Source: a virus. From it: a DNA stretch of 40,532 bases. Within the stretch, counting starts at the first letter, position 1. Every line of letters begins with the position of its first letter. A program made the translations under genes and the position numbers. Below are positions 1,681 to 38,237 of the stretch, in pieces. The notes beneath the pieces are model-generated. The model did no database searches. It was given only the letters and a program-made list of their open reading frames with translations, and was not told where the DNA came from. The stretch lies in the IMG/VR virus record IMGVR_UViG_2799112910_000003, positions 1 through 40,532 of that record, one strand, 5' to 3'.

Positions 1681-1768
1681 TAGTTTATTATTGGATTAGC
1701 GTGTCTTGCACTGTGGGTTCATCTTACTTTCAATTGCCCTCCGTTTGAGGAGAAAGTCTGGTGATAAA

Positions 1769-1885
1769 ATGCTCGGTTGGTTTTGGTTTTTATTCACAGT
1801 ATTCAAATTTGTTTACTTTGAATTTATCAAAAACAAAAAAAACAATCGACGCCCACGAAGGAAGCGTGGACGTCGTTACAGATAA
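1769..1885 (+). CDS. Type I TA toxin-like peptide, 38 aa (MLGWFWFLFTVFKFVYFEFIKNKKNNRRPRRKRGRRYR); module 1697-1955
   Basis: Hydrophobic N-half and basic tail. Leader TAGCGTG..GGGTTCAT is complementary to the 3' ATGAACCC..CACGCTA. Antisense promoter at 1955-1928. Confidence 0.7.
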   Translation: MLGWFWFLFTVFKFVYFEFIKNKKNNRRPRRKRGRRYR

Positions 1886-1938
1886 ATACTTCATATAACG
1901 ATGAACCCGCAAGCGAGTCACGCTACTATTATACCATT

Positions 1939-2832
1939 TCACACTAATTTGTCAATCCCAGACAAAAATTTTCTTGCAATTATAGCAGCTATTGCACCAT
2001 CACTTGCTGCAGTTACTAGCTGTTTAATTGGTGACGATTTGCAATCACCAGCAACATACACACCAGGTATTCCAGTAACAATGCTAAACCCGTTGTTATC
2101 ACTTTTTAACTGTGGGAATAAGGAATTATCAAATGTATATCCAATCTTTAAAAATACTCTCGCACAGTTTAGTGTGCTTGCTTTACCATTTTCTAATATT
2201 TCAATTTTTTTAACGTCTTCATGTATAGACAAAAGTTTCGTATTATAGTGTATAAAACAATTTTTAATAGTGGATATGTCTTTTACTAGTTTTAAATCAG
2301 CACGTGCTTGATTCGATCTAATTAATAAATGTACCTTTTTTGCAATATCCTTCATATATTTTGCACATTCAAAAGCGCTGTTGCCACCACCTACAATAGC
2401 AATATTTTCGCCCTTAAAGAAATGCCCATCACAAAGTTCACAATATGTAAAATTCTCATTTTCAAATCCTTCAAGTGTTCGTGGTTGGGATCCAATAGCA
2501 ATAATCACAGATTTAGCAAAATAAATACCTTTATCTGTATAAATTTTTTTAATTTTACCATCAAGCTGTGCCTTAATTACTTCAGCATACTTAGTAATCC
2601 CGAATTTAGAAACTTGTGAATAAATTTTTTGGCTTAGTTCTTTTCCTTTGATACTTGAAAAACCAGCATAGTTTTCAACTGTTGGAATATAATTGAGTTT
2701 CCCACCAAACAATTCACGCTCAAAAACTAAAACTTTAGTGCATGAATAAGCAAGATATAAACCAGCTGTTAATCCGGCAATCCCACCACCAATGACTATA
2801 CAATCAAAAATTTCTTGTTTTGTTTCAATCAT
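1939..2832 (-). CDS. trxB: Thioredoxin reductase
   Basis: GGGIAG FAD motif, YCELCDG redox CxxC, GGGNSA NADPH motif, VAGD. Confidence 0.9.
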   Translation of the reverse strand: MIETKQEIFDCIVIGGGIAGLTAGLYLAYSCTKVLVFERELFGGKLNYIPTVENYAGFSSIKGKELSQKIYSQVSKFGITKYAEVIKAQLDGKIKKIYTDKGIYFAKSVIIAIGSQPRTLEGFENENFTYCELCDGHFFKGENIAIVGGGNSAFECAKYMKDIAKKVHLLIRSNQARADLKLVKDISTIKNCFIHYNTKLLSIHEDVKKIEILENGKASTLNCARVFLKIGYTFDNSLFPQLKSDNNGFSIVTGIPGVYVAGDCKSSPIKQLVTAASDGAIAAIIARKFLSGIDKLV

Positions 2833-4139
2833 ATAATATTCATCCTTCCCAATTTAGGACTAATGTTCAATTTAGAATTAAGAATACTAGCATGTGGAAT
2901 AAAAGCATATTCCATAGCATCTATCATATCTATATTGACCGATCCATCATCTAGCCTAGTATCTATTGCGCTTGAATCCCAAACTGCATTTCTTAGTGAT
3001 TCAATTGTATTTGTACATGTATTCATTATTTTAAATCTTTGAAAACTCATAAGTCTACTCAATAACTGAATACGATCAATAATTTTGATTTTTTTACAAT
3101 CCGACACTTGAAACTGTCCAACATATCTATAAAGGTAGTATCTAAGTCCCTTTGTTAAGACCTGCCCAAGGCCACCCCAATCAGCTAAAATATTGTTTAT
3201 ATTTCCAAATTTAGAAAATACTTTTCTCACAAATTGTGCAATATATTTATACAATTGTTCTGGTGATTGGACACCTTCTATTTGCATTTCATCTAAAACA
3301 CAAATAGATTCAAATTTGTTGCAAAATCCAACAGCTACAAGCGCAGTATTTGATTTGCTCGCGCCATAATCAATACCAATATTTATACTATCTAATTGTG
3401 AATTTTTTATATCACTAATGATATATTTTTCGGGTTCATTTGCAAACTGATCATATATAATGCCATCAGCTTGTACCCAGCGCCCTAGCACAAATCTTTC
3501 ATAAAAAACACCAGTATACTCTTTTTTTATATCATTTCGTATTTGAGTTTCTATAGTGGTGTTATCATCGAGTAAAAATTTCCATGTTTTTAAACTTATT
3601 TCAGATTGTCGAGTTAAAAACTTTTGATAGAACCAATGCATAGGTGAATCAGGGTTTGTGGTTCCAAGTAATTTCGAACCAGTTTGTGATAGACGAGATA
3701 ACAGCATTGTGAAAAAGTCTTCAGGATATAGTGTTATTTCATCACAATAAGCTGCTTGTAAAGTCATACCACGTATTTTATGTTCAGATCGTGAGTCATT
3801 AACGCCCTCTAAAAATATTTTATGGTCAAAAATACTCGCTTCTTTTTTAATTAGCGAGTATTTAAAAAATTTGGGTGGTACAATCGAATCTAGAATTGAC
3901 AAACAATTTCGTTTTAAAGATGTCAATGTTTTTCCGACCATCAAATAATTATTCTCATTTGGCATTTGGGCAAGTAAAATAAGCCAAGCGATTAAACTCA
4001 CATAGGTTTTCCCCGACCTTACAGATCCCTCTAATATATTGATCCTTTTAGTATTTCCAATAATAACATCTCGAACAAATGATTTTTGCTTTTCAGTAAA
4101 TCCATCAAACATCTTCTTTAATTTCCTTAATAGCATCAA
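2829..4139 (-). CDS. terL: Terminase large subunit (PBSX-like)
   Basis: EGSVRSGKT Walker A, AYCDEITL Walker B, TTNPDSP, nuclease IGIDYG and DMIDAMEY. Confidence 0.92.
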   Translation of the reverse strand: MMLLRKLKKMFDGFTEKQKSFVRDVIIGNTKRINILEGSVRSGKTYVSLIAWLILLAQMPNENNYLMVGKTLTSLKRNCLSILDSIVPPKFFKYSLIKKEASIFDHKIFLEGVNDSRSEHKIRGMTLQAAYCDEITLYPEDFFTMLLSRLSQTGSKLLGTTNPDSPMHWFYQKFLTRQSEISLKTWKFLLDDNTTIETQIRNDIKKEYTGVFYERFVLGRWVQADGIIYDQFANEPEKYIISDIKNSQLDSINIGIDYGASKSNTALVAVGFCNKFESICVLDEMQIEGVQSPEQLYKYIAQFVRKVFSKFGNINNILADWGGLGQVLTKGLRYYLYRYVGQFQVSDCKKIKIIDRIQLLSRLMSFQRFKIMNTCTNTIESLRNAVWDSSAIDTRLDDGSVNIDMIDAMEYAFIPHASILNSKLNISPKLGRMNII

Positions 4140-4434
4140 TTAATTTCCCAAACACTTTATCAGCTTTTGATGTTTGTGAACTAATTGAGCCATTTTGAAC
4201 GTTAATTAAGAATTCCAAAATTTCATGGTCGCCTTTTGCAATACCTTTTAAAAATACAGAAACAATTAAAGCAAATATCAAAGTATTTTTATACGAAACA
4301 TTTGGCATATCTAATAAGGAAATAGTTTTTTTAATATCTTCCAACTGTGGCGGGATGGGAGCCAACATAATGTTATCTATCATTTCAGATATATATATTT
4401 TTTGTTTTTCAAATTTACTATTCAAAATAATCAC
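4105..4434 (-). CDS. Probable terminase small subunit
   Basis: Directly upstream of and overlapping terL; helical C-terminus. No diagnostic motif. Confidence 0.4.
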   Translation of the reverse strand: MIILNSKFEKQKIYISEMIDNIMLAPIPPQLEDIKKTISLLDMPNVSYKNTLIFALIVSVFLKGIAKGDHEILEFLINVQNGSISSQTSKADKVFGKLIDAIKEIKEDV

Positions 4435-37777: not shown

Positions 37778-37847
37778 TTTTTGGCACCTCTTTTTTGCAA
37801 AAATTGCATAATTTATTTTGTAATTTTTAGGTAATAAACACAAAAGA

Positions 37848-37958
37848 ACTCATAAAAAAATCTACCGTGCTTACACCACGGTAGTAATTAAAATTACAAT
37901 TTAATGAACCCGTTCCCGGGTCACGCTACTATTATAACATTTCACATTAATTTGTCAA
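37848..37958 (-). ncRNA. Orphan antitoxin-like sRNA unit upstream of mod2
   Basis: TTGACA..TATAAT; CTACCGTG-cttacac-CACGGTAG. Confidence 0.6.
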
Positions 37959-38045
37959 TCAATTATAATAAATTTTGGCGTGTCTTGGGATTCGCGGGGC
38001 CATCACCAACTTATCTCGTGTTTCGAGGGTAAGTGAGGTGATGAA

Positions 38046-38183
38046 ATGTTAGATTTGATTTGGTTCTTATTTGATATATTTCAATTCATATATAATGAAT
38101 TAAAATATTATAAAAATAAAAGCAAAACAAATAAAAAGCGCCCGCGGAAGCAACGCGGGCATCAAAAAAACAAAAAAACTTGA
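38046..38183 (+). CDS. Type I TA toxin-like peptide, 45 aa (MLDLIWFLFDIFQFIYNELKYYKNKSKTNKKRPRKQRGHQKNKKT); module about 37977-38237
   Basis: GAGGTG RBS; GGCGTGTCTTG..GGGCCATCA versus TGATGGCCC..CAAGGCACGCTA. Confidence 0.68.
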   Translation: MLDLIWFLFDIFQFIYNELKYYKNKSKTNKKRPRKQRGHQKNKKT

Positions 38184-38237
38184 TGGCCCTGTATTCAAGG
38201 CACGCTACTATTGTACTACTTTCTTGTAAAAAAACAA

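Follow-up and report, generated by a model that had tools for sequence, protein, structure and literature searches.

Ten small peptide genes, each facing a convergent gene for a predicted antisense RNA, are spread over the phage record IMGVR_UViG_2799112910_000003 of IMG/VR, a stretch of 40,532 bp that was analyzed over its whole length (the window). We read them, with a probability of roughly 0.7, as ten antisense-RNA-controlled peptide cassettes (M1 to M10) that would work like type I toxin-antitoxin (TA) pairs and follow the design of bsrG/SR4. A replicon usually contains one or a few type I TA pairs, which are regarded as narrowly distributed. A type I-like reading of the ten modules had already been put forward in an original prediction made from the letters of the window, and it is strongly supported at the sequence level by the coding character of the peptides, a covarying hairpin around the ribosome-binding site (RBS), the pairing of the two transcript ends and a structured, convergent antisense RNA. 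In addition to these modules, eight orphan small-RNA genes without a toxin partner and one truncated copy belong to the system, and cassettes and orphans together occupy ~3.2 kb, roughly 8% of the genome.

Open reading frames (ORFs) were found at all ten predicted starts and encode peptides of 21-45 amino acids (aa), with M4 starting at GTG and M5 at TTG. Each ORF is preceded by a leader of 51-74 nucleotides (nt), which opens with a conserved motif a few bases past the -10 box. The original prediction had credited every module with a strong RBS; this applies to nine of the ten, which carry a GGAGG/GAGGTGAT-type site, while that of M1 (1769) is weak. It had also distinguished at least three subfamilies, and three classes do hold (A, with the NR/YR..VV tail; B, with a basic RPR-type tail; C, short and fully hydrophobic with a KK end), except that A and B share a common N-terminal pattern and intergrade through intermediates. 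The toxin-like ORFs are listed below with the predicted transcript start, the energy of the predicted duplex between the 5' and 3' ends of the transcript (in kcal/mol), the score under R2 (a covariance model of the toxin leader) and sub-threshold matches to the Rfam family BsrG.

1769-1885, plus strand: M1, 38 aa, class B (basic RPR-type tail); transcript start 1698; duplex -38.5
12877-13005, minus strand: M2, 42 aa, class A; transcript start 13076; duplex -38.0
16619-16684, plus strand: M3, 21 aa, class C; transcript start 16567; duplex -37.4
22154-22264, plus strand: M4, 36 aa, class A, GTG start; transcript start 22083; duplex -32.0; R2 35.3 bits
22425-22529, plus strand: M5, 34 aa, class B, TTG start; transcript start 22356; duplex -38.3; BsrG match 22353-22623
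30309-30437, plus strand: M6, 42 aa, class A; transcript start 30240; duplex -31.5; R2 55.6 bits
33495-33623, plus strand: M7, 42 aa, class A; transcript start 33425; duplex -29.8; R2 71.4 bits
33751-33837, plus strand: M8, 28 aa, class C; transcript start 33700; duplex -38.2; BsrG match exactly 33700-33912
35945-36070, plus strand: M9, 41 aa, class A (YR..TVV tail); transcript start 35877; duplex -33.9; BsrG match 35874-36142
38046-38183, plus strand: M10, 45 aa, class B; transcript start 37977; duplex -40.7

In each module, a convergent promoter is predicted to give an antisense RNA of 70-90 nt, which begins with the same 5' motif as the toxin transcript, extends back over the end of the ORF and terminates at a hairpin followed by a U-run. 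As had been predicted, this hairpin overlaps or abuts the ORF end, an arrangement seen by sequence in all ten modules, with the terminator serving the small-RNA strand. The antisense promoters are often TGn-extended, several agree with 11-12 of the 12 consensus positions, and an independent consensus scan placed them among the best sigma-70 sites of the window. Terminator-like sites were enriched in a scan of the window (34 vs. 9.5 expected and 23 vs. 9.0 expected), the strongest of them coinciding with small-RNA 3' ends. Since the shared hairpin has its U-run on the antisense strand only, it should act as a terminator for the small RNA but has no obvious such function for the toxin transcript, in which the stop codon comes after it. 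Each module thus appears to contain what a type I system calls for, i.e., an antisense gene with its own promoter and terminator that is complementary to the toxin mRNA. The predicted small RNAs are as follows, with scores under R1, a covariance model of the small RNA built from 15 window copies.

1843-1924, minus strand: M1 small RNA; 12/12 promoter 1955-1928; terminator 1875-1847; R1 56.5 bits
12849-12929, plus strand: M2 small RNA; terminator 12895-12927; R1 66.7 bits
16675-16765, minus strand: M3 small RNA (class C type); 12/12 promoter 16796-16769; supported by its fold
22215-22285, minus strand: M4 small RNA; promoter 22316-22289; terminator 22244-22222; R1 57.3 bits
22490-22571, minus strand: M5 small RNA; terminator 22519-22497; R1 59.1 bits
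30382-30460, minus strand: M6 small RNA; terminator 30414-30386; R1 75.4 bits
33568-33651, minus strand: M7 small RNA; promoter 33682-33655; R1 66.7 bits
33826-33912, minus strand: M8 small RNA (class C type), 3' end approximate; promoter 33945-33916
36021-36090, minus strand: M9 small RNA; terminator 36050-36028; R1 69.4 bits
38132-38206, minus strand: M10 small RNA; terminator 38161-38139; R1 63.7 bits

The leaders had been described as complementary to sequence 3' of the ORFs, and folding confirmed this. In every predicted toxin transcript, the 32 nt at the 5' end pair with the 32 nt at the 3' end (the complement of the antisense start) in duplexes of -30 to -41 kcal/mol, with z-scores of -5 to -9 relative to shuffles, and in nine modules none of 300 shuffles paired as well. 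For eight of the ten modules the best pairing partner was their own 3' end, and the mean pairing energy was -35.8 kcal/mol within modules vs. -19.6 kcal/mol across modules, a preference which indicates that the two transcript ends co-evolve within each cassette. It also follows from the end pairing that the small RNA and the toxin transcript start with near-identical sequences.

Searches with R1 in the window, 26 related IMG/VR loci and a related 42-kb contig recovered 90 small-RNA copies, 76 of them distinct, that fold into a 5' stem-loop, an AU-rich linker and a terminator. In the alignment of the distinct small RNAs, 93.3% of the cells were paired as compared to 83.7% in shuffled alignments, with a covariation of 0.456 vs. 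0.282 and slid controls at ≤ 0.149. R2 recovered 66 toxin leaders (58 distinct), for which the fold comprises a 5' stem-loop, a helix joining a pyrimidine-rich stretch to the RBS, and an inner hairpin with compensatory changes in all five pairs. Among the distinct leaders, 91.8% of the cells were paired (74.1% when shuffled), double-sided changes numbered 164 vs. 49, and covariation reached 0.633 vs. 0.320, with slid controls at ≤ 0.215. Of 52 leaders, 42 had a paired RBS in their minimum-energy fold (0.95 vs. 0.67 in shuffles, p = 1e-9). RNAalifold missed the RBS hairpin when run on a plain MAFFT alignment of all leaders, in which the variable stem was out of register; an alignment of a subset of leaders, together with a covariance model, recovered it. 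Judged by these alignments, both predicted RNAs are real, conserved structures.

The peptides bear the marks of coding sequences. Across the N-terminal half of 27 aligned class A peptides, single-base codon differences were distributed 677:209:1425 over the three codon positions, and the changes were divided into 1121 synonymous and 1190 non-synonymous ones; the ratio of non-synonymous to synonymous rates (dN/dS) was ~0.3, based on few pairs only. A hydrophobic stretch of 17 residues occurs in 86% of 51 distinct peptides, whose C-terminal halves have a mean charge of +4.2. The arms of the small-RNA terminator hairpin code for the conserved C-terminal motifs, which places both an RNA and a protein constraint on this segment. 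These are hydrophobic peptide genes under 60 aa and under coding selection, as type I toxins are, and their products are presumably membrane-damaging. Kinship with Fst, TxpA or Hol_Tox, which the original prediction had invoked, was not borne out: profile searches of the ten peptides against Pfam and NCBIfam returned only noise up to E ≤ 10, with no match to these or to any other relevant family.

Small, hydrophobic and basic-tailed peptides also resemble some holin-like toxins, and Pfam and PHROGs scans of the ORFs recognized no endolysin or holin (nor an integrase), which could favor a reading in which the peptides act in lysis timing or superinfection exclusion, the antisense RNAs setting the timing, and are not addiction toxins. 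We regard this as quite unlikely. The peptides match neither Hol_Tox nor any holin, at 21-45 aa with one helix they are shorter than most holins, and a set of 10-13 diverged paralogues, each with an antidote RNA and accompanied by orphan antidotes, would be unexpected for a lysis clock; an undetected lysin in a divergent phage is weak evidence.

With respect to known systems, the type I reading finds its closest counterpart in bsrG. Nothing in the window reached the gathering threshold of Rfam, while a scan at relaxed E-values gave noise (a microRNA, snoRNAs) and sub-threshold matches to BsrG (RF01412) for M9, M8 and M5 (23.5, 20.7 and 20.2 bits; the other modules were not listed). These matches are full-length, lie on the correct strand and begin within 3 nt of the predicted transcript starts, the one in M8 spanning exactly the distance from toxin start to antisense start. 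Since their scores of 20-23.5 bits compare with a gathering score of 55, the likeness suggested by the sequence is one of architecture and not of RF01412 membership. In the bsrG mRNA, helix P1 forms between nt 1-35 and 232-262, the RBS lies in a stem, and SR4 overlaps the 3' end (PMC3834814). As in bsrG/SR4 (and bsrE/SR5 and yonT/SR6, likewise from B. subtilis prophage regions), the cassettes combine a hydrophobic peptide with a structured mRNA that has a long 5'-to-3' helix and an RBS in a stem, and with a convergent cis-antisense RNA that overlaps the 3' end and the ORF end, its terminator stem-loop facing the toxin 3' coding region. They differ in that the antitoxin is ~75 nt long (183 nt for SR4), no toxin-strand terminator follows the closing helix, the antitoxin start coincides with the end of that helix so that both RNAs begin near-identically, ten copies and orphan antitoxin genes are found within 40 kb, and the peptides match no family.

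The par system of the Enterococcus plasmid pAD1 (Fst/RNA II) consists of convergent RNAs of ~210 and ~65 nt with a shared terminator region, and a 5' structure of the toxin mRNA limits translation. The cassettes resemble it in their convergent RNAs and in the 5' structure predicted to limit toxin translation. However, par is built on direct repeats and its RNAs are complementary at the translation start, whereas the cassettes have inverted repeats, equal 5' sequences and an antitoxin that pairs with the 3' part only; the predicted design is nearest to bsrG/SR4 and not to Fst/par. Several type I modules per replicon are known from the C. difficile prophage phiCD630-1, where they help to keep the prophage after excision and where a non-cognate antitoxin can cross-protect (PMC7699646). 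That prophage likewise carries several small, hydrophobic, positively charged toxins with antisense RNAs (CD0977.1/RCd11 and others). Its four modules (PMC7699646) contrast with ten in the window and at least 13 in a related 42-kb phage contig, in agreement with the high module density originally proposed, and orphan antitoxin arrays were not reported for it.

If the cassettes work as type I pairs, a moderate promoter would give a toxin transcript of ~200-230 nt, whose first and last 25-30 nt would form a long closing helix while the RBS is locked in a hairpin, probably leaving the message long-lived and poorly translated. The peptide made from this message, 21-45 aa in length, would have a single hydrophobic helix and end in a basic tail. 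A strong convergent promoter would supply an abundant RNA of 70-90 nt, with full complementarity to the ORF end and the 3' strand of the closing helix. As this RNA and the toxin transcript share almost the same initial sequence, it would compete with the transcript's 5' end for pairing with the 3' end. Pairing by SR4 creates an RNase III substrate, and the small RNAs described here would similarly open the protective helix and form an RNase III duplex, destroying the message while the phage is present. After phage loss or a shut-off of transcription, the short-lived RNA would decay first and the peptide would be made. We infer that the cassettes help to maintain a plasmid-like prophage and to compete with related phages, and that the orphan small-RNA genes would raise the dosage of antidote or provide cross-protection. 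Addiction, abortive defence and lysis, the functions named in the original prediction, look alike at the sequence level.

Several points weigh against this reading. The toxin strand has no evident intrinsic terminator, so the 3' end of its transcript is placed by prediction; M1 has the weak RBS noted above; and the scores of all peptides and RNAs stay below threshold for every known family in Pfam, NCBIfam and Rfam. Both covariation alignments were fitted to their own models and hence lean to the modelled structure, which the slid controls partly address, and the paralogues they contain are not independent. Moreover, maintenance would require far fewer addiction modules than 10-13 per 40 kb, and another or additional role is likely.

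By best complement, five of the orphan small-RNA genes point to the M9 transcript and two to M2/M7. The orphans are placed as follows.

12647-12725 and 12745-12826, plus strand: two tandem orphan genes upstream of the M2 small RNA; R1 68.4 and 69.4 bits; best complement M2 and M7 toxin transcripts
22594-22671, minus strand: orphan gene; R1 63.9 bits; best complement M9 toxin transcript
30555-30483 and 30650-30578, minus strand: two orphan genes; R1 78.6 and 71.8 bits; best complement M9
36113-36250, minus strand: orphan gene 36188-36113 (R1 80.0 bits) and a copy truncated mid-hairpin at ~36225-36250
37855-37927, minus strand: orphan gene directly upstream of the second methyltransferase gene; 12/12 promoter 37958-37931; R1 79.6 bits
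1565-1644, minus strand: diverged class C-like orphan unit; 12/12 promoter 1680-1653; best complement M8 and M3; its terminator directly precedes the start codon of the first methyltransferase gene

At three sites (16520-16570, 1650-1700 and 37930-37975), toxin promoters stand back to back with strong leftward promoters (12/12 consensus), the leftward -35 box lying 4 nt from the toxin -10 box on the opposite strand; these leftward promoters would drive XkdX or an orphan small RNA.

Comparison with close relatives showed that blocks are shared at 90-98% identity but occur in a different order. Of the internal homology breakpoints, 13 of 29 fall in cassettes, which make up 9.1% of the genome (binomial p = 5e-7), although events are shared among relatives and only six of the ~16 distinct positions are independent. 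For instance, slot 33425-33912 holds M7 and M8 in the window and a single M9-type cassette in the relative L023, with identical flanks that include both promoters, the difference starting at the transcript start on each side. The slot after DnaB is occupied by M6 in the window and by an M9-type toxin in the relative L015, and the window orphan at 30555 corresponds to the cognate RNA of that L015 toxin, from which we conclude that at least some orphans are, by their sequence, remnants of cassettes in which the 5' part of the toxin gene was exchanged for another cassette.

The exchange of cassettes recalls the PeSL cassettes of T4-type phages, promoter-plus-stem-loop units that border variable gene blocks (PMC2839356, PMC4122927). 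The likeness lies in behaviour and not in sequence, i.e., in repeated promoter/hairpin units at the block-exchange breakpoints of close relatives; PeSLs encode neither a peptide nor an antisense pair, whereas the unit exchanged here is a whole toxin/antisense cassette bounded by two transcript starts. With this precedent, the units could be mainly transcriptional punctuation and recombination linkers, whose promoters and terminators insulate gene blocks and supply short homologies for modular shuffling, the peptides being harmless or incidental. Besides the breakpoint counts and the different cassettes found between identical flanks, this would suit the small RNAs that usually lie directly downstream of a block and in its direction, where their terminators would end block transcripts, the cassettes that punctuate the virion genes of the related 42-kb contig every one to three genes, and the ERF and SSB encoded by the phage. 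As a full account we find it unlikely, since linkers have no need for the toxin-mRNA features, namely a hydrophobic ORF under purifying selection, a covarying hairpin that sequesters the RBS, and module-specific 5'-3' pairing; a punctuating role is, moreover, compatible with the toxin-antitoxin reading and need not replace it.

Exchange could also be taken to mean that the cassettes are miniature mobile elements similar to miniature inverted-repeat transposable elements (MITEs), with the ~30-bp inverted repeats as transposon ends moved by some transposase or recombinase. An imperfect inverted repeat bounds each unit, copies are many, the cassette content differs at the same slot between genomes of 97-98% identity, and a TnpB gene is present. 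Nevertheless, none of the junctions that we inspected showed a target-site duplication, movement of such units by TnpB is not known, and the repeats show the covariation of an RNA helix with internal loops and not the conservation of protein-binding ends. Promoters stay with the slot, and chimeric cassettes break inside shared motifs, which argues for homologous exchange. The MITE-like reading was largely rejected on the lack of target-site duplications at the inspected junctions, the covariation of the repeats as a helix and the breakpoints in shared motifs, and we consider it very improbable.

Returning to the type I reading, we tentatively raise the possibility, well short of an expectation, that in this lineage of probably rumen or gut phage-plasmids the cassettes serve as exchangeable junctions, each a unit delimited by its two transcript starts that is swapped into fixed promoter slots, with recombination between cassettes permuting whole blocks and the orphan arrays, whose 5' stem-loops have diverged, forming an immunity library against the toxins of competing relatives. 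If true, this would extend RNA-based phage competition and cross-protection beyond simple addiction. The link between cassettes and breakpoints also suggests that selfish toxin-antidote units can shape phage mosaicism.

The related contig (c60) is a complete phage of 42,072 bp (32% GC) whose terminal repeat measures 141 bp; its cassettes, among them at least 13 toxin-like ORFs, always stand head-on to the neighbouring genes. It was binned into a 1.8-Mb metagenome-assembled genome (MAG) of Acutalibacteraceae, a host assignment by binning only, with the MAG contigs at 37-42% GC vs. 32% for the phage, and within this MAG the small-RNA matches were confined to c60. A DNA-pattern scan of the genome collection gave four matches, three of them by chance and only c60 real, and 120 other genomes of the MAG's family contained no true small-RNA match, the single weak one being an ordinary terminator. 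Window modules found no match in cultured phages and plasmids (megablast, blastn, tblastn), nor did the M9 peptide in 50,697 phage records (tblastn), short low-complexity peptides being hard to detect; from this one peptide, no sequence kinship with the toxins of C. difficile prophages is apparent. A word-based homologue search with one 42-aa peptide gave two matches only and the ESM Atlas nothing usable, while a class A peptide profile identified 42 representative proteins among 1.84 billion public proteins, with most matches on contigs of 42-47 kb that carry the same phage gene set. Judging by their record names (STEW18, STEW19, WOLF17), some relatives probably come from rumen-type metagenome assemblies. 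On one scaffold of 204 kb, six small RNAs and six leaders are packed into 7.5 kb, beside HsdRMS, an ISL3 transposase and Pth, and therefore integrated or chromosomal cassette copies probably exist.

As far as we could find, the families, their density and their putative role as exchangeable junctions are new, while the module design is already known; ten cassettes per 40 kb are far above any phage that we found described. The 58 distinct leaders and 76 distinct small RNAs come from ~300 kb of related phage DNA and would form a superfamily that is yet missing from Rfam, Pfam, NCBIfam, cultured phages and plasmids. Its natural diversity is a rich covariation record for the bsrG-type closing helix and for the specificity of toxin-antidote pairing, and the family could supply many orthogonal small-RNA and peptide switches.

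Regarding the phage itself, the IMG/VR record describes a complete virus with direct terminal repeats, in line with the ~40-kb phage assumed from the outset; the first and last 80 bp of the window are identical, and its GC content is ~31%. Virion genes comprise the large terminase, an SPP1-type portal, the major capsid protein, the tape-measure protein, head-tail proteins and XkdX, and genes for replication, recombination and partition encode ERF, SSB, DnaB, a DnaC-like loader and a ParA partition ATPase; two N6/N4 DNA methyltransferases and TnpB are also encoded. The presence of ParA and the lack of a recognized integrase make a plasmid-like prophage lifestyle plausible. In relatives, we noted type II toxin-antitoxin genes (ParE in c60, L042:15000-15266; RelB and a YafQ/ParE-like toxin in ENA contigs, L049:3528-4066) and, in the ENA relatives, a short Phage_integrase-family protein of 188 aa, which fit plasmid-like maintenance and dimer resolution.

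The two methyltransferase genes (1-1569 and 36266-37843) are paralogous, and upstream of each lies a small-RNA unit whose terminator stops at or just before the gene start. The first of them has, in addition, a terminator-like hairpin with a U-run within its first 20 codons (1539-1519), and expression of the methyltransferases may depend on terminator read-through. The relative L023 has one such gene where the window has two together with the M10 block.

The terminase (2829-4139) and portal (27329-28756) genes are separated by the replication and partition region (DnaB, ParA) and accessory blocks. The same separation occurs in c60 and block order varies among close relatives, so the unusual arrangement characterizes the lineage and does not stem from misassembly of this record alone. 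BspA-type leucine-rich-repeat (LRR_5) proteins in the virion region (26149-26562 and 26754-27242) are split or shorter than those of c60 (L042:525-2373; 358 and 248 aa) and may be receptor-binding proteins. The TnpB gene (15285-16319; IS605 OrfB / Cas12f-like TNB domain) is located between the tail/XkdX genes and an unassigned block, and a sub-threshold Rfam match to the HgcC family just after it (16266-16372; 32 bits, E = 0.0008) is probably the guide (omega) RNA region of TnpB. Finally, the terminator scan picked up short, repeated, hairpin-like motifs clustered at 9288-9358, in or near the start of a gene resembling a helix-turn-helix replication initiator (9042-10031), and this cluster may be an iteron-type origin.

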